64,000 nucleotides of DNA from a virus. The stretch lies in IMG/VR virus record IMGVR_UViG_3300036768_001133, positions 1 to 64,000 of that record; one strand, 5' to 3'. The translations under genes were made by a program, and so were the position numbers. Each line of letters begins with the position of its first letter. Position 1 is the stretch's first letter. The notes beneath the pieces were generated by a model, which was not told the origin of the DNA, ran no database searches, and worked only from the letters and a program-made list of their open reading frames with translations. Positions 5,621 through 22,415 of the stretch are shown one piece after another.

Positions 5621-6427
5621 TTAGTATTGCATTTCTATTATTCTTAACTGACCCGAAGTTACTGAAAAGTTAATGCTTGGCAATGCTTGTCTATGCTGAC
5701 TATTTGCCGTAAATATTATTGGTGGAAAAGTCTCATCATAAAATAACCCATTGATAGTACCAGCTCCTCCACTATGAAATATAAACGCTACACTATAAAT
5801 TCCTGAACTTGTCGCTCCAAAAAAAGGTGCAGTGTAATCAAACTGCAAAATATTATGAAAACTTAATGGACTTGGCGAAGATATGAAATTGTATATCCCT
5901 GTTACATTTGTATCTATATTTGCTATATAAGATAATATAGATGCTATATTAGCATCTATATTTCCCATATATACATTGATACTTGCAACATCTGTTTGTA
6001 TTGTACTTAATATAGTGCTAATACCTGTTAAAGTGCTATCCATATTGACTAAAGTACTATCTATATTAGACAATGTACTATCCATATTAGTAGTAGTATT
6101 GTCTATACTTGTTAATAGTACCTCTAAATCTTGTATGTTTGTATCTATGTTAGTAAGAAGTGCATCTATATTAGCTATATTAGTATCTATATTAGATAGG
6201 TATGTATTTGTAGTAGTTATCAAACTTTCAACATCATCTACCGAATTGTATATGTTTGCAAGTGTACTATTAGTAACTACTAATTTATTATCTATATCTT
6301 GTAATTCTGCTAATATAGCATTTAACTCGGCAGAACAATTACAACCACTCACAGAGGTTAGTAGTTCTATTATTCGCCTTGTCCTTAACTCTATCTGCTT
6401 AATGTTATCAAATTGCTCTGACTTCAT
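5621..6427 (-). CDS. Long heptad-repeat coiled-coil protein (fibre shaft-like)
   Basis: 7-aa periodicity NIDTNIA/NIDSTLV/NMDSTLS over more than 100 aa; beta-rich C-terminal domain. Confidence 0.65.
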   Translation of the reverse strand: MKSEQFDNIKQIELRTRRIIELLTSVSGCNCSAELNAILAELQDIDNKLVVTNSTLANIYNSVDDVESLITTTNTYLSNIDTNIANIDALLTNIDTNIQDLEVLLTSIDNTTTNMDSTLSNIDSTLVNMDSTLTGISTILSTIQTDVASINVYMGNIDANIASILSYIANIDTNVTGIYNFISSPSPLSFHNILQFDYTAPFFGATSSGIYSVAFIFHSGGAGTINGLFYDETFPPIIFTANSQHRQALPSINFSVTSGQLRIIEMQY

Positions 6428-8706
6428 AGCACATTTTTAATTTCTTTTCTTCTTATTATTTCTTTACTTTTTTGCTCTAATGCCACTGCATTCTCATATT
6501 CTTTCCTTTCCAAATTTAATAACTCTTGTTTTAACTTCAAAATTTCTTGCTTATATTTTTTATCTATTTCATTCTTTTCTTTCTCTAATTGTGCTTTCTG
6601 TAAGTTTTCATTCCTTGCTATCTCTAACTCTAACATCTTTATTTCTTTCATCTCTTTTAGTTTCATCTGTTCTATTTGCAGTTTTATCTCCATCTCTTTC
6701 ATCTTCATTTCCATTTCTTTGTCAGGTTGATTGGCTTGCTGTTGCTTCATAGCTTCCATTTGCTTTTCTGCTTCCTCTATCTTTGATAATATCTTACTTT
6801 CTAACTCATTTATACTATCTACCTTTAATAACCTAATTATATCACTTGCTTTCATCATTTGATTTTGCATCATACTTCCTAACATACCTTTTAATTCCTC
6901 AAAATACCTATTCTCTTTTACATTGTCCGTCATAAATATACCATAATCAGCAAGCAAGAAATCCTGACTTAACTTAAATATTTCCTGTTTCCCATCTCCT
7001 AATACATATGTTAAAGGCGTATTAACATTATGAATGTAATAATAATGTTTAGCATAATTCAAAAATCCTTCTAATACTTCCTTAAACACTTTGCTTTGAA
7101 AATAATATAATACTGCTGTGGCATAACTTCCTTGCCTTATTGCTCTATCTATCTGCCCTACTAAATCTTTTTGAAACATTTGTCCTTGCCTTTGCCTATT
7201 AAATCCACTTATCCTATCTACTTCATTTCTAATATCCTCTAACATTTGCGTTATTACAGATATACTTGCATCTAAACTATCATTATAGCTTTGAAATTGA
7301 TTAAACTGCCCTTGTCCTAATGAACTATCTATTATTAACAATCCTAACTTTCTGTAATACAATAAATCGTGTAATTCTAAACCTTTTGGTAATTGCGATA
7401 TATCATATATTACCCCTTTTACACCACTTAAAGCTATCATTCGTTCTCTATGATAGTTTAAGATATTATACAACTCTTGCAAATCCTTTAAATAATATAC
7501 TAAACTAAACTCCTCGCCTGTACTATCTATCTTAAACTCTAATCCCCCATAATGCAACTTGACATAATAAGGATTGCTAAATGAACGCATTTGTATATTA
7601 CTCTTCCCTATCTTATCCCATACATATATATCACTACCTATACAAACAAACTCATACAATTCTTGCATATACCTGCTCTCTTTACTCTTTATCGTTTTTC
7701 TATTAACATTATCTTTTTCTGTTAATAGCTTTACATAATTGACACCATATTTCCCTTCTATTTCAGCAAGTATTCGTTTAGATATGCTCTTCCATTGACC
7801 AATATACACCTCTATCTTATCTTGTGTATCTTGCAAATAATAATTTGGATTGTATCCTAAATCTTGATAATAACTCTTTACCATCTCTACAAAATGATAA
7901 TACTCGTTAGTAAGATAGTAATTTGATTGCCTATCTAACTTTTCTTTATCTTCATCAGTCAAATAATCTTGGTATCTATCTAATATCTGTTCCCTTGTCA
8001 AATATAAACGCTCACAAATCCAATTGCTATCTGCTATGTTTTCTATCCCTTCCTCGTTAGAATATACTAAATTGTAACTTGGTATTACCCTAATCCCTAT
8101 CTTACTTTTATAGTTTCCTTCCTCATATCTCCAAAAACACTTACCTACTTCTAATATACTCGCAAATAAAGCAGTCCTTATCCCCTTAAAATCTAAACTT
8201 AACTCAAAATATTTTAATAACTTCTCACATAATATTTCTACTTCCATTAAATAATCTCGCCCTATATTTTCTTTTAATTGCCTTAACTTACGCTCATCTA
8301 ATACCTCCATCTGCTTTGCACCCGCTAATGCCTTCTCAAACTCGTTATACAAAAACTTCATTAACTCTATATGTACCTTGTACTCCTTATACAATAACCC
8401 ATCTTCATCTATCCTACGTATATGATAATTGTATATCTGCTCCGTCTCCTCCCCTAATGCTACCTGCAAAACAGGTCTTATTAAAGGATAATTCTTTAAC
8501 TTTACAGGATACTCCTTCCCAAACTCCTTTGTAATATACTCAAACTTCTTTTCCGATAAATTACCCTGCAAAATATTATACACTAAATAGTCCTTTACCC
8601 TCCTGCTATAATAATGATTAAAACTATTCCTTATAGCATCTATATTCTCCTTTAACCAATCCCTATTCTTGTCCTTTTCTGATATGTTCTGTCTTGGTAA
8701 TAACAT
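6424..8706 (-). CDS. Portal protein (crAss-like)
   Basis: 760 aa; KNYPLIRPVLQVALGEE, LKDLQELYNILNYHRE, ISGFNRQRQGQ, C-terminal coiled coil; downstream of TerL. Confidence 0.88.
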   Translation of the reverse strand: MLLPRQNISEKDKNRDWLKENIDAIRNSFNHYYSRRVKDYLVYNILQGNLSEKKFEYITKEFGKEYPVKLKNYPLIRPVLQVALGEETEQIYNYHIRRIDEDGLLYKEYKVHIELMKFLYNEFEKALAGAKQMEVLDERKLRQLKENIGRDYLMEVEILCEKLLKYFELSLDFKGIRTALFASILEVGKCFWRYEEGNYKSKIGIRVIPSYNLVYSNEEGIENIADSNWICERLYLTREQILDRYQDYLTDEDKEKLDRQSNYYLTNEYYHFVEMVKSYYQDLGYNPNYYLQDTQDKIEVYIGQWKSISKRILAEIEGKYGVNYVKLLTEKDNVNRKTIKSKESRYMQELYEFVCIGSDIYVWDKIGKSNIQMRSFSNPYYVKLHYGGLEFKIDSTGEEFSLVYYLKDLQELYNILNYHRERMIALSGVKGVIYDISQLPKGLELHDLLYYRKLGLLIIDSSLGQGQFNQFQSYNDSLDASISVITQMLEDIRNEVDRISGFNRQRQGQMFQKDLVGQIDRAIRQGSYATAVLYYFQSKVFKEVLEGFLNYAKHYYYIHNVNTPLTYVLGDGKQEIFKLSQDFLLADYGIFMTDNVKENRYFEELKGMLGSMMQNQMMKASDIIRLLKVDSINELESKILSKIEEAEKQMEAMKQQQANQPDKEMEMKMKEMEIKLQIEQMKLKEMKEIKMLELEIARNENLQKAQLEKEKNEIDKKYKQEILKLKQELLNLERKEYENAVALEQKSKEIIRRKEIKNVL

Positions 8707-8729
8707 ATATTAAACACGTTTTTTATACA

Positions 8730-8737
8730 CAAATATA
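8730..8737 (-). promoter_or_regulatory. Bacteroidota sigma-A -7 element (TATATTTG) upstream of the portal gene
   Basis: Matches TAnnTTTG, about 24 bp before the start codon. Confidence 0.55.
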
Positions 8738-8777
8738 AAATTTTTATTTTTCTATCCCTATTACATAATAAAAAAAA

Positions 8778-9227
8778 TTATGTATTAGACCTATTATCAA
8801 ATACATAATCTATTACCTTGCCTCTATCCTTGTAATATCCCTTATAGATAAGTTTAGGGTTTATAGCATATACTCCACGACCTATGCGTATTAAAACATT
8901 ACAAGATACCAAATTATATATGCTTTTTTCTACACACCTTATACTAATACCTAATGTATCCCCTATTATACCCTTATTACGTTTATTTAATACAATATGC
9001 ACCAAATCACTACCATAATAGACCTCTCCTAATAAATAGAATAATATCCTATAATCTGTAATATTCACTAAACAACTACACCAACTCATATCCTCCACAT
9101 ATAACTGCACAAACATTTCTACCTCTACACGCTTCACTATACTACTACGCTCCACTAATACACTACCTCCACCTACATTCGTAGTGTCTAAACGCTCATA
9201 TATTACCTTCCTTGTTCGCTTGGACAT
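8778..9227 (-). CDS. RepL-like winged-helix replication/maintenance protein
   Basis: HTH (IGDTLGISIRCVEKSIYNLVS) plus GRGVYAINPKLIYKG; paralogous to 16239..16721. Confidence 0.75.
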   Translation of the reverse strand: MSKRTRKVIYERLDTTNVGGGSVLVERSSIVKRVEVEMFVQLYVEDMSWCSCLVNITDYRILFYLLGEVYYGSDLVHIVLNKRNKGIIGDTLGISIRCVEKSIYNLVSCNVLIRIGRGVYAINPKLIYKGYYKDRGKVIDYVFDNRSNT

Positions 9228-9254
9228 ATACTATTTTTATATGAAAAAAACTTC

Positions 9255-9320
9255 ATTAACGAACTATTGGTTCGGTATTAACGAACTATTGGTTCGGTAT
9301 TAACGAACTACTGGTTCGGT
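9255..9320. repeat. Iteron-like array A: 3 x 22 bp ATTAACGAACTA(T/C)TGGTTCGGT
   Basis: Tandem copies at 9255, 9277, 9299; internal dyad CGAAC-N5-GTTCG; just upstream of the RepL-like gene. Confidence 0.9.
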
Positions 9321-9481
9321 ACTTTTTTCGTTAATTCCTTATCTATCAAGCAGATACGTATTCATTTGCTATTATCTCACTCTAGCAAAAACTATTACCT
9401 AAAACTACATAAAAAAAATAACAAAAATACCTTATCTAAGGCATATTTGTTACTCCTATGTATAAACCTAACTCCTAAAAA

Positions 9482-9910
9482 CTAATTCTCAACTTTGCTA
9501 ATATCTACCTTTTCAAAATTCATCACTAACCTAAACTTCCCCTTCATCAATATATCACTCACCCTATACAACCCTCTCCTAACCCTCTCTAAAAAACCAT
9601 AATCCTCTAATACCCTCAATATCATTAACAAATATACACGCTTCACACCTAATAACTCCATCAAATACCTCATACCCTCCCTGTCCCTCGTGCTAAATAA
9701 ACCATTCCCATATAATACACTTATCTCATATATAGCCTTCATACAACGTGTAAAATTTATTAAACGCTCATCTCCTAAACCCCTCCCCATCATATAACCC
9801 ATAAACTCTATCATATCATATACATTCCCACCCCCTACAACTACCTCTATATAACCATTCCCTATCTCCCTAAAATTAAAAAACTCCTTTAACTTTACAA
9901 ACCCTTTCAT
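9482..9910 (-). CDS. Putative winged-helix DNA-binding protein
   Basis: LMELLGVKRVYLLMILRVLEDYGFLERVRRGLYRV. Confidence 0.55.
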   Translation of the reverse strand: MKGFVKLKEFFNFREIGNGYIEVVVGGGNVYDMIEFMGYMMGRGLGDERLINFTRCMKAIYEISVLYGNGLFSTRDREGMRYLMELLGVKRVYLLMILRVLEDYGFLERVRRGLYRVSDILMKGKFRLVMNFEKVDISKVEN

Positions 9911-9921
9911 AATATAATAAT

Positions 9922-11772
9922 TTATCCAAATACAAATTTATCCCCCTCCCTACGCCATGTAGGAAACTTAAAACTACTACTACGCTCCTCAAAACCTAAA
10001 CGCAACTCCTCATCATATATCAAACATAACATACTCGCTATCGTCCTGTCATACTCATTCCCCTCAAAATTAAAATTCATTATGTCTTCCACTTGCTCCC
10101 TTATCCATAACTTCTCCATACCCTCCTTCAAATACTTACTAAACCTTTCCACAGCAAACATCTTCCTCCTATAATCCATAACATAACCATACTTGTTCGT
10201 TACCCTACTATACTTTAACCCTATATTCAATAACCTCGGACTACTCGCTAATATACTACCCCAACCTACCTGCTTCAAATACGAAATTATACCTATCTTA
10301 CTATGCTCCACCATCACCTTCGCATTGTAATACAAACATAAACTTAATACACCCTCGTAAAAATCCTCTACATTGCTCGGTCTATCTACATACTCCGCAA
10401 CAAACTTCCCCTCCAACCTGTCAAATACATATACAGCCCCCTTACTCTTACTCCATAAACTCTTGTCTTGGTCATAACTATCACAACCCGCTATGTACCT
10501 CCCCTCCTCCACTACCCCACCTACACGTATAGGCTCGTCTATTATTACAAAATTCCCTAACCTGTCCTCCTTAAACTCTACCTCCACCTCAACACCACTC
10601 CTATATCCATTACAATATAATACACCCCTCTTCACTATTTCCCTATACTCCCTATCACTTATCAATAACAACTCCTCTAACCGCTTCCTCACAAACGAAA
10701 ATGGCGTTATATTGCTTACTAAAAACGCTTCATTTACCTCAAACGGCATCTCTTGTATAAAACTCTCATATGCCCCTATATCACCACTCTCTAATAACTT
10801 GTTACGCTTCCCCTCTAAATAAACCCTCGCCCCAACTTCATCACTTACCCCATCCTCACCATAATACCCCTCTAACTTCTTGTAAGCAGGTATAAAATAA
10901 CATACCCTCTTCCCATTATCAACCTCAAAACTATACAAATTAAAAGCATCAGGATTAAAAAACATATCCCTCGCCTCTATACTACCACCACTCTTCATCT
11001 CTCCACCAGTACCAAATAATATCGCTACACCAGTCCTTATACTACCCCTGTACAAACTATTCTCCACAGCCTTGTAACTATCCTTCAAATTGCTCTTCCA
11101 ACTACCTACCTCATCTAATATAACCCTCCTCGGTCTCCCACCCCTCGCCTTACCACTATCATCAAATATTATCATCTCTACCTCACTATTAAAACCCTTT
11201 CGCAACCTCTCCCCCTTCTCCCCTATATACTCTACCCCACTCATTATATACCCCTCCTTGTCCTTTATCTTACTATGACGCATCTCCTTCGGCAAACTAT
11301 CTAATCCCTCCACCATCTTCTTCCATAACTTTATACCATGTGGATACGTACTCGCACCCAATAAAGCATAACTATTCCTGTAAAATGTATAACTATGCGA
11401 TAATATACAAGCCCCTATGTAACTCTTACCATAACCCCTCCCAGTTATTACAAGCAAATTCTTCCCACTACTAAATGCTAATTCCACTAAATAAAATAAC
11501 TCCCTGTCCTCCTCACTATAATTCGGATAACCTAATACTACCTTACCACCCTCTAACTTGTTTATCTTAAAATAATTCAAAAAAAAATAATACTCCCCAG
11601 TTATCAACTTACCCCCTACTTCATACCCGTATAAACACCTATTCAACTCCTCCCTCCACCAACCTATATACCCCTCCTCTCCCTCTACATAAGGACAACC
11701 TAACCTCGCCCTAATCAATTCATCTATATACCTGCGCTCCATAATAAAATATATTTTAATAAAATATACCAA
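9922..11772 (-). CDS. terL: Terminase large subunit
   Basis: Walker A TGRGYGKS, Walker B VILDEVG, GTGGEM, RNaseH-like YIAGCDSYD...DRTIASM; crAss-type N-terminus ITGEYYFFLNY. Confidence 0.93.
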   Translation of the reverse strand: MVYFIKIYFIMERRYIDELIRARLGCPYVEGEEGYIGWWREELNRCLYGYEVGGKLITGEYYFFLNYFKINKLEGGKVVLGYPNYSEEDRELFYLVELAFSSGKNLLVITGRGYGKSYIGACILSHSYTFYRNSYALLGASTYPHGIKLWKKMVEGLDSLPKEMRHSKIKDKEGYIMSGVEYIGEKGERLRKGFNSEVEMIIFDDSGKARGGRPRRVILDEVGSWKSNLKDSYKAVENSLYRGSIRTGVAILFGTGGEMKSGGSIEARDMFFNPDAFNLYSFEVDNGKRVCYFIPAYKKLEGYYGEDGVSDEVGARVYLEGKRNKLLESGDIGAYESFIQEMPFEVNEAFLVSNITPFSFVRKRLEELLLISDREYREIVKRGVLYCNGYRSGVEVEVEFKEDRLGNFVIIDEPIRVGGVVEEGRYIAGCDSYDQDKSLWSKSKGAVYVFDRLEGKFVAEYVDRPSNVEDFYEGVLSLCLYYNAKVMVEHSKIGIISYLKQVGWGSILASSPRLLNIGLKYSRVTNKYGYVMDYRRKMFAVERFSKYLKEGMEKLWIREQVEDIMNFNFEGNEYDRTIASMLCLIYDEELRLGFEERSSSFKFPTWRREGDKFVFG

Positions 11773-11773
11773 C

Positions 11774-12289
11774 CTATATCAACCTGTCTATTAAACCCTC
11801 CTCCATATTCCCCCTCCTACGCTTACTGCCAGATACACCCCCTAACCCTAATACCAATCCCAACTCCTTCCTCAATTTCACCATATCTAATATCGCCTTC
11901 ACCTTCTTCGGCTCACTCTCTACATCTATATCACTCCCACTATAATCCCTAACTACCCTGTCTATACGCTCCACTAACCTCCTATAAACACGCTCCTCCT
12001 GATTGCCTACCTCCTCTAATATCCTATCCACTAAATTAACCAATACCCCCAATAAATTACTATACTCCTCCCTGCTCATCTCCCTACTAAATATGTCCCT
12101 GTATATCACCTCCCCACGCAACGTAATGTCCCCATATACATATACACTGCAATAATACCAATATACATACCTCCTCAAAAAATATTCCTCAACCTCCCCT
12201 AAACCTACTACCAAATTACGCCAATATAAACGATAATCCTCACTTACCTCATATCTATCCCCAATACGCTCTATTATACCTAATTCCAT
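11774..12289 (-). CDS. Putative terminase small subunit
   Basis: Immediately upstream of TerL; C-terminal RRGNMEEGLID. Confidence 0.5.
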   Translation of the reverse strand: MELGIIERIGDRYEVSEDYRLYWRNLVVGLGEVEEYFLRRYVYWYYCSVYVYGDITLRGEVIYRDIFSREMSREEYSNLLGVLVNLVDRILEEVGNQEERVYRRLVERIDRVVRDYSGSDIDVESEPKKVKAILDMVKLRKELGLVLGLGGVSGSKRRRGNMEEGLIDRLI

Positions 12290-12292
12290 ATA

Positions 12293-13063
12293 CTAATCCC
12301 CTTTTTTACTTATACACTTGCATACACCATATAACTCACTAATATCTAAACTCTCACCAACCCCATAACGCTTGTTACCATAATTCACCCAACCTATATT
12401 CCCCAACCTGAACCTTATCGTAAAATTATTCCCATTCCTGCCATAATGCCCAAAATCTAAACTACTATCACCTCCCCTTAACCTTAATAATAACCTTAAT
12501 AAACTACCCCATAAAGCCTCTAAATACCCGTGAAATACTAAATGACCATAATCACTACATAACATCCTATACCTCCATAAATAACTACCTAATACATCCC
12601 CTCCCCTCAATATACCCCTGTAAAATATACCCATTACCCTCAATAAATAAAAATATACATATAACCTCCAATGAAATAAATACCTATCCTTTATCACTAC
12701 TACATTATACCCCCTCTCCAATATCTCCCTGTACATCAACCCATAATCTATATCTATAAACCTGTTTATCCTTAACCTGTAATCCTGTAAATAATATATC
12801 TCCCTTAAACAAACACCATTGTAAAATAAACCATTCCCCATCACCATTATACTATAATAATCCCCCTCCCCCTCCCCACCTAATAACCAATCCTCCATCA
12901 ATAAACCCCCATATATACCACCACTTATACATACTAAACCATTGCAATTCCTATGACTATACATTATGTTCATCATAAACATAAATAATATCTCCCCAAT
13001 TATACCACTATACCCATAACCACGCATTATACCCCTAATACGCTCCTTTAATGAAATAACCAT
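12293..13063 (-). CDS. Hypothetical protein with extreme G/R/Y/L bias
   Basis: 256-aa ORF with 0 Pro, 1 Ala, 1 Thr, 1 Gln. Confidence 0.55.
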   Translation of the reverse strand: MVISLKERIRGIMRGYGYSGIIGEILFMFMMNIMYSHRNCNGLVCISGGIYGGLLMEDWLLGGEGEGDYYSIMVMGNGLFYNGVCLREIYYLQDYRLRINRFIDIDYGLMYREILERGYNVVVIKDRYLFHWRLYVYFYLLRVMGIFYRGILRGGDVLGSYLWRYRMLCSDYGHLVFHGYLEALWGSLLRLLLRLRGGDSSLDFGHYGRNGNNFTIRFRLGNIGWVNYGNKRYGVGESLDISELYGVCKCISKKGD

Positions 13064-13278
13064 AACAACCTACAATTTCATAAAAAAATACAAAAATAAA
13101 AATAAATCCCTACAAAATTAAAAACTTATACCACTACTACAAACAAAAATCTAAAAATTGTCCGATAATAATAACAAAATACTATAAATCATAAAATAAC
13201 CAAATAACCTAAAAACATCTTGATAAACATAAAATATGCCAATGAACATAAGGGTAATACCCAAAGTACCCCCCAATC

Positions 13279-13922: not shown

Positions 13923-14297
13923 ATGAAAGAAGGAAAAAAATACAAAATTATTAGACTCACCCCATACGTTATTAGTGTATGGGGGGACAATGGATATCTA
14001 AGTATTCGAACCCTAATAAGGAACTTATGTAACAAAGGGTTCTGTACAAGCTTCCTTGTGAAAAACAAGGAAATGCTTGGGTCTAATCCAACTATGTTGG
14101 ATAATGAAATTATTGATAATATGTTATTCCTTTACAGCCTCGATATAGAGGCGGTAAAGAAAGAATACGAAAGTATTCGTTTGTTTTTAGCCGAAAACCT
14201 AATTAGGTTTTCGGATGAACAATTTCAAAAGAGATATTCTGCCTCCTTTTATAGGAGGTATAGAAGCCTGCCCGACATATGGATCGAGGTAGGATAA
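13923..14297 (+). CDS. Hypothetical protein
   Basis: 124-aa ORF followed by a terminator. Confidence 0.6.
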   Translation: MKEGKKYKIIRLTPYVISVWGDNGYLSIRTLIRNLCNKGFCTSFLVKNKEMLGSNPTMLDNEIIDNMLFLYSLDIEAVKKEYESIRLFLAENLIRFSDEQFQKRYSASFYRRYRSLPDIWIEVG

Positions 14298-14303
14298 TAG
14301 TAT

Positions 14304-14343
14304 AGATAGATAACGACATTAGTTGTTATCTATCTTTTTTTTT
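14304..14343 (+). terminator. Intrinsic terminator
   Basis: AGATAGATAACGAC-atta-GTTGTTATCTATCT followed by a T run. Confidence 0.8.
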
Positions 14344-14761
14344 GGTTTTTATGTTAGCAGATAAATCAAATTTTTCACTTTCTTCAAGCTCAAAACCCTT
14401 ATTAGGTGAGGGCTTGAAAGTAATAAAGGTATTAGGCACTATGAAGTGCCAAAACCTGTTGAGATATATAAACGAAAACTTTGACAAGTTTTCGTTTTAT
14501 GTAAATAATACTCTTTATTTATATTGTATAGATGAAGAGTATGAAGAGCAATATTATATAGGTGAATTAGAGAAGCCTATATATGGGGATTTCATAGTAA
14601 TGATAGTACCACCAAGTTTGGGTACTATTTATTACGATACAGATTACTATGGTAATATAGTGTATTACTATAGTAATATAGTATATAGTAATGCTAATGA
14701 TTTGGATAGTATTACTATGGAGAAAGAATACTATGGTATAAGATGTTTAATATCTATATAG
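14342..14761 (+). CDS. Hypothetical protein (likely ATG 14351)
   Basis: ORF in the early block. Confidence 0.55.
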   Translation: MVFMLADKSNFSLSSSSKPLLGEGLKVIKVLGTMKCQNLLRYINENFDKFSFYVNNTLYLYCIDEEYEEQYYIGELEKPIYGDFIVMIVPPSLGTIYYDTDYYGNIVYYYSNIVYSNANDLDSITMEKEYYGIRCLISI

Positions 14762-14804
14762 GGATTTAAATAAAAAAAACTTAGGGTAATTGAAAAAATG
14801 ACTT

Positions 14805-14933
14805 ATGGCAAGGATTCTATTCTTTATATTTCTTTTACTACTTTTAAATGCTGTTATGGTAATATTAGCATATTCGCAAATAAAATATGGATTGTATAAA
14901 ACAAAAAATATAAAATACATTAAAAAAATATAA
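14805..14933 (+). CDS. Small hydrophobic protein (42 aa), paralog or remnant of 18347..18556
   Basis: MARILFFIFLLLLLNAVMVILAYSQIKYGLYKTKNIKYIKKI. Confidence 0.45.
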   Translation: MARILFFIFLLLLLNAVMVILAYSQIKYGLYKTKNIKYIKKI

Positions 14934-14946
14934 AATACATTAAAAT

Positions 14947-15525
14947 ATGGAGTTCATTATTGAATTAAGCAGGTTGAGGGAAACTCCCTGCGAAAGATAC
15001 CTTAAACATTTTGAAAATGGGAAAGTAGATGCTCTCAAGCTATTTAGAGAGCTTGGACAGAAATACGAATGGTTATACAACCATTCGGATTATGATATTA
15101 TAAGATTTGAAATAGAAAACGGGATATTTAATTGGGAAGAATATAGTTACTATGTTCCCCAATATTGTCCTGAATATTTTGATGGAAATAAATACAATTG
15201 GAGAGAAGATAGCTGGGCAATAGTTCAATATTGTCCAGAGCATTTTGATGGGGATAAATACAACTGGGAAAAAGATAGTTGGGCAATAGTTAAATTTTGT
15301 CCTGAATACTTTGATGGAAATAAATACAACTGGAAAGATCAAGGTTGGGCAATAGTTAAATATTGTCCTGAATACTTTGATGGAAATAAATACAATTGGG
15401 AGAAACATAGCTATTATGTAGCTATGTATTGTCCTAAATTGTTGGACAAGAATAAATACAATTGGAGAGAAGATAGTTGGGCAGTATCTGAATATTGTCC
15501 CGAACTATTGAAATATAAACCTTAA
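14947..15525 (+). CDS. 22-aa repeat protein, paralog 1 (6 repeats)
   Basis: About 63-aa conserved N-domain plus repeats W-xxxS(W/Y)(A/Y)(V/I)xxYCPxxxDxxKYN. Confidence 0.85.
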   Translation: MEFIIELSRLRETPCERYLKHFENGKVDALKLFRELGQKYEWLYNHSDYDIIRFEIENGIFNWEEYSYYVPQYCPEYFDGNKYNWREDSWAIVQYCPEHFDGDKYNWEKDSWAIVKFCPEYFDGNKYNWKDQGWAIVKYCPEYFDGNKYNWEKHSYYVAMYCPKLLDKNKYNWREDSWAVSEYCPELLKYKP

Positions 15526-15533
15526 CATTTCAT

Positions 15534-15565
15534 AACACACAAAGTTACAAACTTTGTGTGTTTTT
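15534..15565 (+). terminator. Intrinsic terminator
   Basis: AACACACAAAGTT-aca-AACTTTGTGTGTT followed by Ts. Confidence 0.75.
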
Positions 15566-15757
15566 ATTTGTGTTCGTTATTAGTTCAAAAATGTAACAAC
15601 AAAAATTTAAAAAATAGGCAAGTGTGATAAAGCCAATTACATAGACTACAAGTTCCTAGATAAAAAGCCCACTATTAGAGATTTTCAAGAAAAAAATCTA
15701 CTTACAAATTTTGAACTTTTTCAAGATATTGCCGCTTAACTCACGTTATATAATATT

Positions 15758-15795
15758 TATATGTGTGTAATAATTCACACATATAGATTTTTTTT
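15758..15795 (+). terminator. Hairpin/terminator in the long intergenic region
   Basis: TATATGTGTG-N8-CACACATATA followed by a T run. Confidence 0.5.
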
Positions 15796-15876
15796 ATGCT
15801 TACGCATACGCTAAATATATAAGAAAAGAAAATATAGGATAATACATTGTTTATCAATGTTTTACGATAAAAATTA

Positions 15877-15937
15877 TTACTCTATGGGGCTAATGAAATT
15901 ACTCTGTGGGAGTAATTTCAATAGTCTGTCAGAGTAG
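15877..15937. repeat. Iteron-like array B: 3 degenerate units, 22-bp period
   Basis: TTACTCTATGGGGCTAA (15877), TTACTCTGTGGGAGTAA (15899), ATAGTCTGTCAGAGTAG (15921); dyad TTACTC-N5-GAGTAA. Confidence 0.7.
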
Positions 15938-16045
15938 TAAAAAATTTAAAAGAAGTCCTTTTTTTTTAGTTTATGTGTGCAATATACTAATATATAGTAA
16001 AATAAGAGTTAAATAATTGATTATCATATATTTAACTCTTATGAA

Positions 16046-16110
16046 AATGTCGTTTTCGGTTGATAATAATGTCGTTTTCGGTTAATAATAATGTCGTTTT
16101 CGGTTAATAA
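16046..16110. repeat. Iteron-like array C: 3 x 22 bp AATGTCGTTTTCGGTT(A/G)ATAAT
   Basis: Copies at 16046, 16068, 16090; upstream of the RepL-like gene. Confidence 0.9.
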
Positions 16111-16196
16111 AATACACTATTTTGAGTGTATTTTATACATTATTTGATATGTATAAAGAAAATGTATTTTAAGCTTTTTTTTTAATTTTTAATACT

Positions 16197-16204
16197 TATA
16201 TTTG
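16197..16204 (+). promoter_or_regulatory. Bacteroidota sigma-A -7 element (TATATTTG)
   Basis: TAnnTTTG about 35 bp upstream of the RepL-like gene. Confidence 0.55.
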
Positions 16205-16238
16205 TGTGTATTAAATACTAATTATTAGATGTAAAAAT

Positions 16239-16721
16239 ATGAAAAATGCAAAGACAAAAATTTATGAAGAGATTAAAACTGTAATAAACGAAGATGGGGA
16301 AATAATTACAGCTGAATTTACAACAGTAAAAAAAGTAACTAAGGAAACGTTCTTACAGGTTTATTTAGATGATTTTTACTCCTTAATGAGAATTAGAGAG
16401 GGAAACGAATACAAATTAGTTCTGTGGATAGGTAAAAATATGAATTTCGATAATGAAATAATACTGGTTAAGGAAATAAAAAATAGAATCGCCAATGAAA
16501 TTGAGTGTAATGTAAGAACCATAGATAACTCAATACGGTCGTTGGTATCTAAGGGCATTTTAATCAAGTCTGGGAGGGCTATTTTTACTTTAAACCCACA
16601 TTTATTTTTCAAGGGCAGCTTAGACCAGCGGAATAAACTCAAAAAGCTTATAAAGAAAGTAGAATACGATTTCTTAGAAGAAGATGAAACAAAAGAAATA
16701 CAAAGTGATAGCAAAGGTTGA
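16239..16721 (+). CDS. RepL-like winged-helix replication/maintenance protein
   Basis: FLQVYLDD, IANEIECNVRTIDNSIRSLVSKGIL HTH, GRAIFTLNPHLFFKG. Confidence 0.8.
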   Translation: MKNAKTKIYEEIKTVINEDGEIITAEFTTVKKVTKETFLQVYLDDFYSLMRIREGNEYKLVLWIGKNMNFDNEIILVKEIKNRIANEIECNVRTIDNSIRSLVSKGILIKSGRAIFTLNPHLFFKGSLDQRNKLKKLIKKVEYDFLEEDETKEIQSDSKG

Positions 16722-16920
16722 TAATAACAAGTTTGTAAAGTATAACGTAAATAATTTGATTCTTTTCACGAAATTTCTTGACAGGAGCTTTCAGGTTTGT
16801 TGGCGTTGGTTCAATGTGATAGCAATATTTTGTTTGTTTTATATGGCTACTATTTTTACATTTGTGTTAGTAGTTAGTTTTATATTATTACCTATAAAGG
16901 TTATACTATGGTTAGTATGA
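16684..16920 (+). CDS. Small hypothetical protein with hydrophobic C-terminus
   Basis: 78 aa; KFVKYNVNNL...FLDR...WRWFNV followed by TM-like segments. Confidence 0.5.
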   Translation: MKQKKYKVIAKVDNNKFVKYNVNNLILFTKFLDRSFQVCWRWFNVIAIFCLFYMATIFTFVLVVSFILLPIKVILWLV

Positions 16921-18209
16921 TAGATGTTGAATTAGACAGCATATATTATTGTCTAATAAACAATAGCAATATACGTATATTTGATAGGGAATACTATACA
17001 AAGGGTGATACTTTGTATATGTATGACAAGTTAGTTGAAATATATAATAAAGAAAAATATGTCAGTTTGAATATATTTAGGAATGAGATAAAGGGGGATA
17101 GTATATTGCATAAGTATTTATCTGTATATAATGATAAATATGTATGTAGTTATACTATTGAAGAATGTGAAAAGATAATGAGGAGAGACTACAATAGAAG
17201 GGTATTTATAGATATGATAAATGATAAGTCCTTATTAAGGGCTAGTGATGATAGGATATTGGAGGTGATGATGGAGGTCATAAGCAAGTTTAGGGGGAAT
17301 AAGATGGAAAATATAGTTAGTAATTTTGATAAGATGGTTGAATACATAATTAATGTAGATAATAACAGGTATAAAATAGGTATAGAGGGTATAGATAGTT
17401 CTATATCTATAGAGCCTGATAGGTTTATAGTGATAGGTGGGGCGAGTGGTAGTGGGAAGACAGCCTTCAGTGTATTTTTAATAAACAAGCTATGTCAGTT
17501 GTATAGTGATAGCTTGTATGTTTTATTTATAAGCCTTGAGATGAGTGAGATAAGAGTGATGATGAGGTTAATAAGTTTATTATCGGGAAAGAGCATTGGG
17601 GAGTTAAAGGCTGTAGATAAAAGTTTTTTTGAAGGGTATAGGGATATAATTAGTGGTTATTCATTAGATATAATGTATAGCACTATGGATATTCCAAAGT
17701 TATCTGCAGTATTGCAGATGCATATAAATGAAGCAAATAGAAAAGGTAAGATACCTGTGGTTTTTATAGACCATTTTGGAGAAGTAAGTGGTTTAGATGA
17801 ACATACAGCGAAATCTAACACAGATAAAGTAACCGCTTTGTGTAAGGATGTAGCAAGACAAGGCGGCATATGTTTCGGTCTTACGCAATTGCGTAAGGAT
17901 TTGTTAGATAAGAGGAATGAAGGCAGTTATTACAAGCCTTCAAATGGATACATTATGAATAGTCAGAGTGTAGAAGCGAGGGCAGATGTAATAATGCACT
18001 TGTGGAGACCTGAATATCATAATGTATTAGAGATAATAGAAGAGGAAAAAGATATGATAAGAGTAATAGATACAAGAGGTAGTATATGTATAGTAAATGA
18101 TAAGAACAGGGATTTTAAGAAGGGTGATATATGGCTGGATTGTGATATTAAAACGAATAGTTTTAAGGATATTCATAGTAGTAAAATACAAATTATTAAT
18201 AAATTTTAA
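16908..18209 (+). CDS. DnaB-like replicative helicase (SF4)
   Basis: GGASGSGKT, FISLEMS, VFIDH, LTQL, ADVIMHLWRP, KNR. Confidence 0.92.
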   Translation: MVSMIDVELDSIYYCLINNSNIRIFDREYYTKGDTLYMYDKLVEIYNKEKYVSLNIFRNEIKGDSILHKYLSVYNDKYVCSYTIEECEKIMRRDYNRRVFIDMINDKSLLRASDDRILEVMMEVISKFRGNKMENIVSNFDKMVEYIINVDNNRYKIGIEGIDSSISIEPDRFIVIGGASGSGKTAFSVFLINKLCQLYSDSLYVLFISLEMSEIRVMMRLISLLSGKSIGELKAVDKSFFEGYRDIISGYSLDIMYSTMDIPKLSAVLQMHINEANRKGKIPVVFIDHFGEVSGLDEHTAKSNTDKVTALCKDVARQGGICFGLTQLRKDLLDKRNEGSYYKPSNGYIMNSQSVEARADVIMHLWRPEYHNVLEIIEEEKDMIRVIDTRGSICIVNDKNRDFKKGDIWLDCDIKTNSFKDIHSSKIQIINKF

Positions 18210-18219
18210 TTTAATTTAA

Positions 18220-18396
18220 ATGGAAAAGAAAACCATCATTATTGAATGTATAGGCGAGCAATATTCTGCCTATATAGAAGATATACCTGGGTTAATATCT
18301 TTTGGTACTAACCTAAAAGAGGTATTGGATAACTTAGTGGAGGGATATGAATTACATATGGAACTATTGTCAGAACTGGACGGAGATAACTATTAA
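18220..18396 (+). CDS. HicB-like antitoxin N-domain protein (58 aa, not in ORF track)
   Basis: MEKKTIIIECIGEQYSAYIEDIPGLISFGTNLKEVLDNLVEGYELHMELL matches the HicB pattern YxAxxxDLPGxxxxGxTxxExxxNxxEAxEL. Confidence 0.7.
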   Translation: MEKKTIIIECIGEQYSAYIEDIPGLISFGTNLKEVLDNLVEGYELHMELLSELDGDNY

Positions 18397-18556
18397 TGCT
18401 ATTATAGTAATAGTAGGATATTCGCAAGTAAAAGAAGCAAAGATAGAAGATAAGTATAAATTTGAAGACAAGATACTAATACCCGTATTAGAAGGGAAAT
18501 ATGGAAAAGAATACTTGTATAAAACAAAAAATGTAAAATACATTAATGTATATTAG
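18390..18556 (+). pseudogene. 5'-truncated paralog of 14805..14933
   Basis: NAIIVIVGYSQVK...KYGKEYLYKTKNVKYI versus NAVMVILAYSQIKYGLYKTKNIKYI; the track start at 18347 lies inside the HicB-like gene. Confidence 0.45.
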
Positions 18557-18935
18557 AGCGATAGGTAAAGATATAATTATATCTGTAGATAATGATTTAT
18601 TAAAGCCTTGTAATAGGATAACTTGGTTTTATCCTATTACAGACAAATGTAAAAATAGTATAGTATCGTATTTCAAAAAGCAAGGATATAGTATAGATAT
18701 CCTCAAAGAAGAATACATACTATATGAAGATGACTTGTATATTTGGTTATCTGATACAGATAATATACAGGGTATAGATTATGATTGTTTATATTGTGGT
18801 GGTGATAGTTTTGATATGGTAATAAACGGAAAAGAGCATAATATATGCTTAAAAGAAGATAAGCTATATGAAATAGTAATTGGTAATCACTATAATAAAA
18901 GCAGAATAATAAAGGCAGAACCGAAAAGCCTGTAA
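18546..18935 (+). CDS. Hypothetical protein
   Basis: 129-aa ORF whose 3' end runs into the conserved element. Confidence 0.6.
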   Translation: MYIRAIGKDIIISVDNDLLKPCNRITWFYPITDKCKNSIVSYFKKQGYSIDILKEEYILYEDDLYIWLSDTDNIQGIDYDCLYCGGDSFDMVINGKEHNICLKEDKLYEIVIGNHYNKSRIIKAEPKSL

Positions 18936-18959
18936 TTAGGGGTAAAAAAAACAAGTAAA
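18911..18959 (+). promoter_or_regulatory. Conserved upstream element, copy 1 (putative structured RNA)
   Basis: AAAGGCAGAACCGAAAAGCCTGTAATTAGGGGTAAAAAAAACAAGTAAA directly before ATG. Confidence 0.55.
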
Positions 18960-19538
18960 ATGGAATTTATTGTTGAATTAGAAAAGCTAAGGGAAACACC
19001 TTGCGAAAGATACCTTGAACATTTTATAGATGGTAAAGTCGACGCTCTCAAACTATTTAGAGAGCTCGATGAACAATATGAATGGTTGTATGCATATTCG
19101 GACTATGATATAGTCCGTTATGAAATAGAAAATGGAATATTTGATTGGGAAAAACACAGCCGTTATGTTGCTGCGTATTGTCCTGAATATTTTGATGGAA
19201 ATAAATACAATTGGGAAAAATATAGCTGTTACGTTGCTCAATATTGTCCTCAATACTTGGACAAAGAGAAATACAATTGGGAAGTTGATAGTTGGGCAAT
19301 AGTTAAATATTGTCCGCAATATTTTGATAAAGAAAAATACAATTGGAAAACTGATAGCTGGGCAATAGCTGAATATTGCCCACAATATTTCGATAAAGAA
19401 AAATACAATTGGGAGAAACATAGCTATTATGTTGCTATGTATAGTCCTGAACTATTGGACAAAGATAAATATAATTGGAAAGAAGATAGCTGGGCAGTAG
19501 CTAAATACTGTCCCGAACTATTGAAATATAAACCTTAA
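18960..19538 (+). CDS. 22-aa repeat protein, paralog 2 (6 repeats)
   Basis: Same N-domain and repeats as paralog 1. Confidence 0.85.
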   Translation: MEFIVELEKLRETPCERYLEHFIDGKVDALKLFRELDEQYEWLYAYSDYDIVRYEIENGIFDWEKHSRYVAAYCPEYFDGNKYNWEKYSCYVAQYCPQYLDKEKYNWEVDSWAIVKYCPQYFDKEKYNWKTDSWAIAEYCPQYFDKEKYNWEKHSYYVAMYSPELLDKDKYNWKEDSWAVAKYCPELLKYKP

Positions 19539-19552
19539 TTATTTTTACTACA

Positions 19553-19611
19553 AAAGGCAAAACCCGAAAAGCCTGTAATAAAGTAGGGGTAAAAAAAACA
19601 AGTAAAAAAAA
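19553..19611 (+). promoter_or_regulatory. Conserved upstream element, copy 2
   Basis: AAAGGCAAAACCCGAAAAGCCTGTAATAAAGTAGGGGTAAAAAAAACAAGTAAAA. Confidence 0.55.
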
Positions 19612-20226
19612 ATGGAATTTATTATCGAATTAAGCAGGTTAAAAAAAGAACCCTGCGAAAGATATTTAAAGTATTTTATAGACGGCAAAATCGATGCTCT
19701 CAAGCTATTTAGAGAGCTTGGCGAACAATATGAATGGTTGTACAGACATTCGGATTACGATATTATAGGATTTGAAATAGAAAATGGAATATTTGATTGG
19801 GGAAAATATAGTTATTATATTGCTGAACTTTGTCCGCAATATTTGGACAAAGATAAGTATAACTGGAAGGAACATAGCTGGGCTGTTGCTGAATTTTGTC
19901 CCAAGCATTTGGACAAAGATAGATACAATTGGGAAGAAGATGGTTGGGTAGTTGCGAAATATTGTCCCGAACTATTGGACAAGGAGAAATATAACTGGGA
20001 AAAAGATAGCTATTATATTGCGAAATATTGTCCCGAGCATTTGGACAAGGACAAATACAATTGGGAGAAATGCAGCTGGGCTGTTGTTGAATTTTGTCCC
20101 GAGCATTTTGATAAGGATAAATATAATTGGAAAGAAGATAGTTGGGCAATAGCTCAATTTTGTCCCGAACTATTGAAATATAAAAAAGGCAAAACCCGAA
20201 AAACCTGTAAAAAAGTACAAAACTAA
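19612..20226 (+). CDS. 22-aa repeat protein, paralog 3 (6 repeats, extended C-terminus)
   Basis: Ends KYKKGKTRKTCKKVQN instead of KYKP. Confidence 0.85.
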   Translation: MEFIIELSRLKKEPCERYLKYFIDGKIDALKLFRELGEQYEWLYRHSDYDIIGFEIENGIFDWGKYSYYIAELCPQYLDKDKYNWKEHSWAVAEFCPKHLDKDRYNWEEDGWVVAKYCPELLDKEKYNWEKDSYYIAKYCPEHLDKDKYNWEKCSWAVVEFCPEHFDKDKYNWKEDSWAIAQFCPELLKYKKGKTRKTCKKVQN

Positions 20227-20231
20227 AAAGT
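20185..20231 (+). promoter_or_regulatory. Conserved upstream element, copy 3 (degenerate)
   Basis: AAAGGCAAAACCCGAAAAACCTGTAAAAAAGTAC. Confidence 0.45.
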
Positions 20232-21011
20232 ATGAAATTTATTGTCGAATTAAGCAGGTTAAAAAAAGAACCCTGCGAAAAATACCTTAAACATTTTGTA
20301 AATGGTAAAGCTGACGCTCTCAAATTATTTAGAGAGCTTGGCGAACAATACGAATGGTTGTACAGACATTCGGACTATGATATTATAGGATTTGAAATAG
20401 AAAATGGAATATTTGATTGGGAAAAATATAGCTATTATATTGCCCAATATTGTCCCGAGCATTTGGACAAAGAGAAGTATAACTGGGACGAAGATGGTCT
20501 TTATGTTGCCGAATATTGTCCCGAGAATTTGGACAAAGAAAAATACAATTGGAAAGACCATAGTTGGGCAATAGCCCAATATTGTCCCGAACATTTTGAT
20601 AAGGACAGATATAATTGGGAAGAATATAGTTATTATATTGCTAAATATTGTCCGCAATATTTAGACAAAGAGAAGTATAACTGGGAAAAACAAAGTTGGG
20701 CAATAGCCCAATATTGTCCCAAGCATTTTGATGAGGATAAATATAATTGGAAAGAACATGGTTATTATATAGCCTTATATTGTCCTCAATATTTTGATAA
20801 AGATAGATACAATTGGGAAAAACATAGCTATTATGTTGCGAAATATTGTCCCGAGCATTTGGACAAGGATAGATACAATTGGGAGCAATGTAGTCGCTAT
20901 GTTGCCCAATATTGTCCGCAATATTTGGACAAGGACAAATATAATTGGGAAGAACATATTTGGGCAGTAGCTCAATTTTGTCCCGAACTATTGAAATATA
21001 AACCTTATTAA
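20232..21011 (+). CDS. 22-aa repeat protein, paralog 4 (9 repeats)
   Basis: Same N-domain with nine repeats. Confidence 0.85.
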   Translation: MKFIVELSRLKKEPCEKYLKHFVNGKADALKLFRELGEQYEWLYRHSDYDIIGFEIENGIFDWEKYSYYIAQYCPEHLDKEKYNWDEDGLYVAEYCPENLDKEKYNWKDHSWAIAQYCPEHFDKDRYNWEEYSYYIAKYCPQYLDKEKYNWEKQSWAIAQYCPKHFDEDKYNWKEHGYYIALYCPQYFDKDRYNWEKHSYYVAKYCPEHLDKDRYNWEQCSRYVAQYCPQYLDKDKYNWEEHIWAVAQFCPELLKYKPY

Positions 21012-21023
21012 AATTTTACATTT

Positions 21024-21254
21024 ATGAAAAAAAGCAAAGTGTCCATTTCAAAAAGAATGAAAATATTAGAGAAACTAATAGATGTAGATGGTTTTGATGA
21101 ACTAATAGAAAATTTTATTATTGATTGTTCTTTTGAGCTTGCAAGATATAGACAAGCAGAAGAGCATAATAAAGCTAAAAGGCTTGAAAAGAAAATAATT
21201 AAATTTCTGGAAAAAGTAAAAACATCAAGAAAACTATACTTAGGAGAAATATGA
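21024..21254 (+). CDS. Hypothetical protein
   Basis: 76-aa ORF coupled to the ERF gene. Confidence 0.6.
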   Translation: MKKSKVSISKRMKILEKLIDVDGFDELIENFIIDCSFELARYRQAEEHNKAKRLEKKIIKFLEKVKTSRKLYLGEI

Positions 21255-21793
21255 TTTACAAAAAATTATCTGAAATTCAAAGTAAAATAAAAGTTCCTAA
21301 AACGCAATACAATAGTTTTGGGAAATATAATTACAGGTCTTTGGAAGACATATTTGAAGAAGTAAAAAAGTATTTAGACGAATACAAACTATCTTTGTAT
21401 TTGTCTGATGAAATAGTTTTAATAGGTGATAGATATTATGTTAAAAGTACCGCTATACTTGTTGATGTAGAAGATGGTGCAAAGATAGAAAGTATTGCAT
21501 ATGCGAGAGAGGAAGAAAATAAAAAAGGTATGGACGGAAGTCAAATAACAGGAGCATCGTCAAGTTATGCAAGAAAATATGCTCTCGGTTCATTATTTTT
21601 GTTAGATGATAACAAAGATAGTGATTATACTAATACTCATGATAAAAACGATAAACCTATTTTGACAGAAGACAAGATAGGTAAAGCAGTAGAATATATG
21701 AAAGAGAAGAAGATAAGCATAAATGAACTGAAAAAGAAATATACTATAAGCAAAGATATAGAAGACAAGATTTTATCTTTATTAAAAAATTAA
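21251..21793 (+). CDS. ERF-family single-strand annealing protein
   Basis: KLSEIQSKIKVPKTQYNSFGKYNYRSLEDI...AYAREEE...QITGASSSYARKYAL..LFLLDD. Confidence 0.92.
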   Translation: MIYKKLSEIQSKIKVPKTQYNSFGKYNYRSLEDIFEEVKKYLDEYKLSLYLSDEIVLIGDRYYVKSTAILVDVEDGAKIESIAYAREEENKKGMDGSQITGASSSYARKYALGSLFLLDDNKDSDYTNTHDKNDKPILTEDKIGKAVEYMKEKKISINELKKKYTISKDIEDKILSLLKN

Positions 21794-21797
21794 AATT

Positions 21798-22415
21798 ATG
21801 ATTTTAGTTAAACTTTTGTATCAAGAACAAGAAGAAGATGTTTTATATCTTATTGATGAAAATAGAATAGAAACTATGCCTGTTTCTGATACATACAATA
21901 ATGATGGACTACTACTTGGAAGTTATGGAGCAGGTGATAGTATAGAGATTTTGTCTGAAAATCTTGTTGCATTTGCAAATAAATATGAAGAAGAAAATGA
22001 CAGTGATTTTGAATGGGAAATAGGACAATTAGTAGAAGCCTATTATAACACCGATTTATTTGATAAAATAAAATCAAATAAACAATTAAAACAAGATAAA
22101 GATTACAAGTTATATCAACTAACTTGTAAAGGATACAATTATTGGAACGGAAAGAAATATCAATCCGTCATATTAGAAGATAGCTTTGATAATAGTTTCG
22201 TAACTCACGAAATTATTGATGAAGATGAATTATTAGCATTAGTAAATAAAGCAGTTAAAGAAAAAGAATATGTAAAAGAAGAAAATGGAGTTATATTTTA
22301 TTCTTACAAACTAAATGAAGAAGAAACAAAAAAGTTTGATTTGAATAAAATAACTTTTTTTAATAGTTGTTGGCAACAAGATAGTTGGTATGAATATAAA
22401 ATGTTGTTTTCGTAA
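21798..22415 (+). CDS. Acidic hypothetical protein
   Basis: 205-aa ORF, E/D-rich. Confidence 0.6.
   Translation: MILVKLLYQEQEEDVLYLIDENRIETMPVSDTYNNDGLLLGSYGAGDSIEILSENLVAFANKYEEENDSDFEWEIGQLVEAYYNTDLFDKIKSNKQLKQDKDYKLYQLTCKGYNYWNGKKYQSVILEDSFDNSFVTHEIIDEDELLALVNKAVKEKEYVKEENGVIFYSYKLNEEETKKFDLNKITFFNSCWQQDSWYEYKMLFS

Follow-up and report, generated by a model that had tools for sequence, protein, structure and literature searches.

The window analysed here, a 64,000-nucleotide stretch (positions 1 to 64,000) of the 72,795-bp virus record IMGVR_UViG_3300036768_001133, which has direct terminal repeats, carries four paralogous genes encoding proteins composed of a shared N-terminal domain (N-domain) and a series of 22-residue tandem units. 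These proteins are tentatively interpreted as early-expressed protein-binding solenoids that serve host takeover or counter-defence, an assignment held with somewhat less than even confidence. The 62-residue N-cap domain, the stack of 22-residue units and a truncated C-terminal cap would together form a small cytoplasmic α-solenoid, in which each unit would comprise an 11-residue helix (W1–Y11), a break at C12–P13, a short helix, and a loop containing D17 and K20–Y21–N22. The conserved residues at positions 1, 5, 8, 9, 11, 12, 13, 16, 17, 21, and 22 would build the scaffold, and positions 3, 4, 6, 7, and 10, placed on that side of the long helix which is not part of the core, would create a continuous variable surface along the stack. 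Early in infection, this surface is predicted to bind proteins, most probably those of the host, and its specificity would be renewed when units are duplicated or lost, when phages swap whole alleles, and when genes are duplicated into arrays.

The four genes are all encoded on the + strand, at the starts proposed in an earlier reading of the sequence (the first-pass annotation) and present in the list of open reading frames (ORFs). Paralog A (14947–15525, 192 residues) consists of the N-domain at 14947–15132 followed by six units, and matches the family profile with an E-value of 5.6e-69. Paralog B (18960–19538, 192 residues) has its N-domain at 18960–19145, also followed by six units, and paralog C (19612–20226, 204 residues) has its N-domain at 19612–19797, six units, and a basic tail, which is a read-through into a conserved spacer that precedes C and D. 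Paralog D (20232–21011, 259 residues) has its N-domain at 20232–20417 and nine units organized as three 3-unit super-repeats. When the family profile is compared with the whole 72,795-bp genome, all nine matches fall inside these four genes only. The N-domain, which had been given as about 63 residues but spans 62, is shared by the four paralogs and follows the pattern MEFI[IV]EL..PCE[RK]YL..DALKLFREL..YEWLY..SDYDI..EIENGIF[DN].

The repeat regularity of these genes is far beyond chance. The earlier count of 6, 6, 6, and 9 units with a CPELLKYK cap agrees with our unit parsing: the 27 units of 22 residues are in strict register, with 23 of them complete and the final one in each gene shortened to form the cap. 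Tandem Repeats Finder locates the corresponding 66-bp arrays at 15161–15509, 19144–19513, 19820–20168, and 20416–20962 (71–76% matches, scores 290–457), together with a 198-bp super-period of three units in C and D. A and B are colinear unit by unit, with the pairs A1–B1, A5–B5, and A6–B6 as best nucleotide partners. Antisense ORFs that overlap the arrays, such as the one at 19763–20323, are by-products of the repeat. The four proteins are acidic (pI 4.8–5.7, net charge −5 to −12) and 19–23% aromatic, and inspection of the sequences reveals no signal peptide or membrane segment, so that by this criterion they appear to be soluble.

The units share a nearly invariant scaffold of W, CP, D, and YN, as had been proposed: W1, P13, D17, Y21, and N22 are present in all 23 full units of the window, and C12 in 22 of them. 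The first-pass annotation had also described a 4-residue block at positions 4–7 that toggles among 11 states. The block is indeed varied, but it occurs in 15 distinct forms (HSWA, DSYY, QSWA, and HIWA had been overlooked), S5 within it is conserved in 19 of the 23 full units, and variation at positions 3, 10, and 15 is as high as that at positions 4 and 6. The pattern is better described as two unit subtypes, S-W-A and S-x-Y, in which positions 6 and 7 are coupled, combined with freely varying positions 3, 4, and 10.

The same distribution of variability is found in the family at large. Among 925 unique units in clean register, taken from 320 family proteins, the highest entropy (2.75–3.03 bits) occurs at positions 3, 6, 4, 10, and 7, and the conserved positions are W1, S5, V/I8, A9, Y11, C12, P13, L/F16, D17, K20, Y/F21, and N22. 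Position 4 is occupied mostly by D (26%), Y (25%), H (19%), and N (6%). Positions 6 and 7 are coupled, with a corrected mutual information of 0.57 bits; about 39% of the units are of the S-W-A subtype, and in most of the rest the pattern is S-x-Y, position 6 being free. In the 122 proteins with at least four units (863 units), pairs of units from the same protein show no greater similarity at positions 3, 4, 6, 7, and 10 than pairs drawn from different proteins (0.20–0.30 within versus 0.17–0.27 between proteins), whereas positions 14, 15, 18, 19, and 20 are homogenised within each protein (0.45–0.74 versus 0.26–0.46). This homogenisation indicates that concerted evolution acts on the units, and yet diversity at the five helix positions persists.

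Substitution rates show a similar contrast. In three colinear comparisons, the ratio of nonsynonymous to synonymous divergence (dN/dS) is 0.07–0.12 in the N-domain and 0.12–0.15 at the other unit positions, and at positions 3, 4, 6, 7, and 10 it is 0.66 (A versus B), 1.41 (D versus its counterpart in the near-identical phage L011), and 1.20 (C versus D), values that derive from 25–45 codons per pair, at positions picked because they are variable, and from units of uncertain homology. As for the variable face that the first-pass annotation had proposed, variability is concentrated on the long helix, and helical periodicity combined with the predicted secondary structure would place positions 1, 5, 8, 9, and 12 on one stripe, positions 3, 6, 7, and 10 opposite to it, and position 4 on the flank.

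The solenoid architecture is supported by structure prediction. The AlphaFold2 model of paralog D (m5cde31672262), built with an alignment of 27 family members, is a helical solenoid with a mean predicted local distance difference test score (pLDDT) of 91.4 and a predicted template modelling score (pTM) of 0.81, and is weak only at unit 2, where the alignment has a gap. According to DSSP, each modelled unit consists of a helix at residues 1–11, a break at C12, a short helix at residues 13–15, and a loop at residues 16–22. The N-domain modelled alone (pLDDT 88.5) contains two short strands and four helices. No solved structure seems to resemble either model convincingly. A Foldseek search of the whole D model against the PDB returned a best E-value of 2.8 and none at or below 0.001, and for the N-domain alone Foldseek listed nothing at E ≤ 10 and VIA-align reached a Z of 3.0 at best. 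In an exhaustive aligner, the top matches of the D model are the ankyrin chains 8v0e_B (Z 6.0, root-mean-square deviation (rmsd) 7.7 Å over 211 residues) and 4g8k_A (Z 6.0, rmsd 5.1 Å over 207 residues), although the aligner itself cautions that Z values below about 13 are common among helical repeats. The best match in BFVD, a collection of predicted viral structures, is MSV205, with an E-value of 0.015, a probability of 0.72, template modelling (TM) scores of 0.29 and 0.18, and an rmsd of 11.8 Å.

Sequence libraries likewise return no named family, as the first-pass annotation had stated. Pfam contains no significant match for the four paralogs (E ≤ 1) or for the 27 family members (E ≤ 0.1), and neither does NCBIfam for the same two sets. 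With PADLOC, three of the four paralogs have no match, and C has one weak match to TniQ (E 0.001) in which no matched stretch passes on its own. The only match in PHROGs is a 19-residue stretch of phrog_658, a family of unknown function, and a PDB sequence profile search reaches a best E-value of 0.43. In phage GenBank records, D has no match by tblastn, and a blastn search with positions 14001–22000 matched only the Erf gene. The only named neighbours in Protein Atlas, NosD and HEAT_PBS, were set aside, as their scores of 0.79–0.80 equal the chance level stated by the tool. A search of the literature and of protein-family libraries found no description or name for this family.

The family is real but rare. 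A protein collection clustered at 90% contains 67 relatives, and 171 cluster representatives are found at E ≤ 1e-3 among 1.84 billion proteins, 101 of them at ≤ 1e-10 and 22 at ≤ 1e-30; no relative in either set bears a function name. Searches with N-domain patterns locate 2 viral and 46 metagenome loci. No relative was found among 185,579 species represented by one genome each, in a search that used N-domain patterns only and misses repeats with other N-termini; some relatives do carry the repeats behind other N-termini, or have unit variants of 25–26 residues. Longer fused forms of 455–2000 residues were searched for and none was found, which according to the tool is weak evidence. The readable neighbours of the relatives are all of phage kind, namely a DnaB-like helicase, Sak4, primase, Erf, a RuvC-like resolvase, GTP cyclohydrolase, phage RNA polymerase beta, and a QueC-like protein, and as far as this context shows, the family is encoded by phages.

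Comparison with relatives reveals how the repeat genes change. In the near-identical phage L011, the downstream DNA is 98–99% identical to the window and 11 flanking genes have a synonymous divergence (dS) of 0–0.057, whereas the counterpart of D, which also has nine units, is only 70% identical in protein sequence (dS 0.80, dN 0.15, ω 0.19). The high dS of this gene relative to its flanks indicates that the allele was replaced by recombination rather than mutated in place. The order of the blocks differs between the two alleles: D reads YSYY DGLY HSWA YSYY QSWA HGYY HSYY CSRY HIWA, and its L011 counterpart reads YSCY HSRY HSWA (four times) HSWV YSSY DSWA, with units 3–6 mutually 91–95% identical, as expected from recent unit duplication. 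In L012, the DnaB gene has 95.6% nucleotide identity, the repeat genes are rearranged, the segment corresponding to window positions 15570–16818 is missing, and units 1 and 2 at the start of an 8-unit gene are identical over the 60 nucleotides compared. L020 is 99.3% identical over window positions 7186–13251 and then diverges, with a counterpart of A that is 69% identical. A contig of metagenome run X3 joins 18910 to 19553 (126 letters on the shorter side), and gene B is therefore absent there; contigs over the repeats are fragmented, and other joints, with short sides or inserts of unclear content, were excluded. The earlier proposal of diversification by shuffling of 66-bp units thus holds in part: repeat order varies among relatives through whole-allele replacement and the amplification of units, and no evidence of free shuffling of single units was found. 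An absence of such variation, which the first-pass annotation had named as a refutation, is therefore not the case.

Copy number varies widely: L001 has one gene, L016 and L017 have four, and L025 has 15 in succession, and on each of two contigs, 17 and 22 kb long, there are 17 family ORFs and almost nothing else. In a tree of N-domains, the four window genes form one clade with those of L012 and L020 (support 100/99) and the other arrays fall into clades of their own, which indicates lineage-specific expansion. Several long frames were also observed: L016 7890–9830 is one frame of 646 residues with 25 units, L035 4183–5868 encodes 561 residues with 23 units, and the 313-residue protein P0001 contains two complete modules of N-domain plus repeats in a single chain, implying that neighbouring family genes fuse or are read through in some arrays. 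The single-gene contig L001 is an unrelated viral contig, in which a polymerase-like ORF and a pair of dUTPase-like ORFs (1–3637 and 5093–5993) seem, by eye, to be interrupted by intein-like insertions; the polymerase-like ORF holds a ‘CLSGNTYVQT ... VTSNSHA’ segment, and the putative dUTPase is split over two ORFs, both names being assigned by eye.

Phage counter-defence genes are often located in early regions of the kind in which nearly identical phages differ. The early-region location of the four genes, the allele replacement, the turnover of units, the lineage-specific arrays, and the purifying selection on the scaffold all point to phage–host conflict, and the acidity of the proteins together with their long-tailed residue combinations speaks against a nucleic-acid code with a small alphabet and suits a surface that binds proteins. 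From these features, we infer that the variable positions would be exposed, that they would mediate binding, and that the ligands would be host proteins. Several observations weigh against this interpretation. The overall dN/dS between D and its L011 counterpart is 0.19, and the difference between the two reflects allele replacement and not point mutation; the elevated ratios at the five variable positions carry the limits given above. The coupling of W6/A7 versus x6/Y7 may represent two packing solutions rather than a code or a contact with a ligand. Among the 25 long relatives scanned, Pfam recognises only a partial D12 methyltransferase stretch in one and nothing in the other 24, no fusion to a domain suggestive of function was found, and no match to a defence or anti-defence family was obtained. 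The array-only contigs lack phage marker genes, and part of the family may be cellular or prophage in origin, because two source labels place relatives in bacterial metagenome-assembled genomes (Calditerrivibrio and Bacteroidia); on these two labels only, Bacteroidota or thermophiles similar to Calditerrivibrio would be candidate hosts.

The variable helix could alternatively belong to a nucleic-acid reader of the PUF, PPR, or TALE kind, a TALE/PPR-like logic that the first-pass annotation had also offered, in which each unit would contact one base of single-stranded DNA or RNA through positions 6, 7, and 10 (plus 4), the order of units would spell the target, and the targets would be transcripts or intermediates of replication or recombination. 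The genes do reside among those for DnaB, Erf, single-stranded DNA-binding protein (SSB), and RusA, and immediately precede Erf not only in the window but also in L018, and the variable positions, which are rich in Y, W, H, and R, are spaced i, i+1, i+4 on the helix, resembling the PUF recognition triplet. Pumilio domains also appear among the weak Foldseek rows of the D model, but these rows (5bzu_A, 3h3d_X, 3q0o_B, and 1m8z) are at noise level, with E-values of 3.5–9.9 and TM scores of 0.12–0.24; the PUF chain 6ny5_B has a Z of 4.2 in the exhaustive aligner, and Pfam returns no PUF, PPR, or TAL match. The acidity of the proteins also speaks against such a reader, and the units of the family have a mean net charge of −0.73, with −0.13 at positions 2, 3, 4, 6, 7, and 10. 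Finally, the 925 units contain 354 distinct combinations at positions 4, 6, and 7, of which the top four make up 30%, so that no small alphabet is apparent. On these grounds a base-by-base reader is unlikely, and the TALE/PPR-like part of the earlier proposal is not upheld. A broader version, in which the unit would be a programmable module for reading a linear polymer, be it a peptide segment or single-stranded nucleic acid, with one element recognised per unit through positions 3, 4, 6, 7, and 10 and with unit order encoding a target that phages rewrite by unit duplication, loss, and allele exchange, is given a slim chance, slightly below that of the base reader.

The acidity that speaks against a nucleic-acid reader would suit a decoy, in which a rigid solenoid would occupy the DNA-binding groove of host nucleases or restriction enzymes, its single units having no specificity of their own, as Ocr, ArdA, and pentapeptide-repeat proteins do when they work as DNA mimics; the net negative charge, the rigid repeat stack, and the early-region location are all consistent with such a role. 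Known DNA mimics are, however, more strongly charged, and the charge here is modest beside them. The diversity maintained within each protein at the five positions would be needless for a mimic, and the structure searches reveal no likeness to a pentapeptide or ArdA fold, so that we hold mimicry to be as improbable as the programmable module. Least probable of all, and quite doubtful, is a binder of a small ligand, metal, or glycan through a ladder of aromatic, Cys, and His residues, or a self-assembling scaffold of a replication compartment. The aromatic content, the one Cys per unit (in 86% of the 925 units), and the frequent H, D, or Y at position 4 would favour such a ladder, but no conserved metal site is evident, because 14% of the units have A, Y, S, L, or R in place of C12 and only 16% have H15, and the visible absence of a signal peptide or membrane segment also argues against it. 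The remaining probability is assigned to none of these readings.

The interpretation as early protein-binding solenoids is of interest because phage early regions hold most of the host-takeover and counter-defence functions still awaiting description, and localised hypervariability, allele replacement, and 15–17 tandem genes are features that usually accompany molecular arms races. If host factors are what the proteins bind, the identity of these factors could point to new defence systems or routes of takeover in thermophilic and wastewater bacteria. In protein engineering, the helical unit, being compact at 22 residues, could find use as a small binder scaffold, and should the unit prove to be a programmable module, it would be among the shortest natural α-solenoid scaffolds with designer potential.

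The phage that carries the four genes is crAss-like, judging from its gene content: the crAss_MUZ muzzle domain (PF25731, E 2.4e-29) is encoded at 61472–63919, the portal corresponds to phrog_6547, and the large terminase to phrog_6681. The muzzle gene and a tRNA-Met gene (59221–59295) adjoin two giant ORFs on the − strand, at 33479–45760 (4093 residues) and 45773–54421 (2882 residues); the former has no Pfam match, and the latter has only a superfamily-1 helicase-like stretch at residues 1872–1978. The large-terminase region (10001–12000) has a G+C content of 40%, compared with 26–32% in most other 2-kb windows, and a GC skew of −0.73. The + strand block with the four repeat genes also includes RepL (16239–16721), a DnaB-like helicase (16908–18209), Erf (21251–21793), SSB, RusA, and Gp157. 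In a check for RNA evidence, no RNA sample was listed as containing the region.

Several non-coding elements surround the repeat genes. A terminator-like hairpin with a 13-bp stem and a T run (15534–15562, + strand) lies just 3′ of the stop codon of A. An A-rich element (14892–14948, + strand), recovered as direct-repeat families D2 and D4 and by alignment, lies upstream of A and is repeated at 18515–18551, in front of the gene (ORF 18546) that leads on to B, C, and D. The B–C spacer matches the Rfam DUF805b RNA motif (RF02914) at 19554–19589 on the + strand, scoring 40.1 bits against a gathering threshold of 35.6 (E 1.7e-09), and weaker copies are found at 18912–18942 before B and at 20187–20217 before D (19.3 and 19.4 bits). 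The copies consist of a hairpin plus a tail, and the window contains their core pattern two times, where 0.01 occurrences would be expected. None of 27 relative loci has the motif at gathering level, and only those loci that were cut from the window’s own genome contain the core pattern; a scan of the viral collection gave four matches, all within unrelated coding sequence, and the literature searched on the DUF805b motif does not describe this repeat family. As no downstream gene here encodes a DUF805 protein, the gene association of the motif may be wider than its name implies.

Between A and the helicase gene, three 22-bp direct repeats with a ATGTCGTTTTCGGTT core are located at 16041–16110, about 130 bp upstream of the RepL-like initiator gene (PF05732, E 8.1e-14), and this is probably where the phage has its origin of replication, with the repeats as iterons. 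Another RepL-like ORF (E 3.8e-10) is present on the − strand at 8778–9227. One contig of metagenome run X3 joins 15797 to 16822. Three intergenic stretches, at approximately 14535–14801, 15603–15869, and 18273–18539, have a contig depth 10–100 times that of their surroundings in four metagenome runs, and look like a short element common to far more abundant genomes. A joint of 15646 to 18357 is also present in all four runs at a depth of 231–2224, with a shorter side of only 24 letters, and may be a repeat artefact.

Among known repeat systems, ankyrin, HEAT, and armadillo proteins share with this family the stacking of short helical units, capping units, and a variable surface. Their units, however, are 33 residues or more (33 in ankyrin) and consist of two helices, whereas the unit described here has 22 residues and one long helix, and no Pfam Ank match is found. 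TALE, PPR, and PUF proteins resemble the family in their tandem helical units, in having a few specificity positions on one helix, and in their variation of unit order, but differ in that their units are 34–36 residues long. The TALE unit has 33–35 residues with a variable di-residue at positions 12/13, the PPR unit is a 35-residue helix-turn-helix, and PUF/Pumilio domains comprise about eight three-helix repeats of 36 residues that form a crescent; the unit described here has 22 residues and one long helix, Pfam returns none of the three families, and the acidic proteins and the long-tailed combinations do not agree with the basic surface and small alphabet that go with their function. DUF4116 is a family of short helical repeats of about 24 residues common in giant viruses; its model PF13475 is absent from the Pfam scans of the four paralogs (E ≤ 1) and the 27 members (E ≤ 0.1), and a Fadolivirus DUF4116 protein stands at rank 23 of the BFVD list with an E-value of 2.6. 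As for a diversity-generating retroelement, which would have a reverse transcriptase and a template repeat close to its variable target gene, Pfam detects no reverse transcriptase in the 47 window ORFs scanned, a scan that covers all but the last 8.8 kb of the 72.8-kb genome.

Two further systems also bear comparison. The ‘tryptophan repeat gene family’ of entomopoxviruses is also virus-encoded, with W-spaced repeats and amplified paralogs, but its hosts are insects and not bacteria, and the fold match to its member MSV205 is weak and a lead only; one member of that family is reported (PMC7728225) to carry an F-box. The nearest conceptual parallel is provided by the hypervariable leucine-rich repeat (LRR) gene arrays of Flavobacterium psychrophilum and Dictyostelium purpureum, which are described in PMC10392669 and resemble the phage family in unit size (about 22 residues), in gene arrangement, with paralogs in tandem that vary in their number of units, and in residue preference, Y, D, H, and N dominating the hypervariable positions. 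The LRR proteins are β/α horseshoes and, in Flavobacterium, secreted surface proteins, whereas the proteins described here are predicted to be all-helical in their repeats, lack a visible signal peptide, and are encoded within phage replication modules; the LRR motif LxxLxLxxN is absent from the 27 units, and DSSP assigns no strand to the repeat region of the model. α-Solenoid binders and hypervariable repeat arrays are therefore already known kinds, and what appears to be new, on the evidence of the sequences, is a helical repeat of 22 residues whose hypervariability is localised and which, in the phage contexts where it has been seen to date, reaches an amplification of up to 17-fold.

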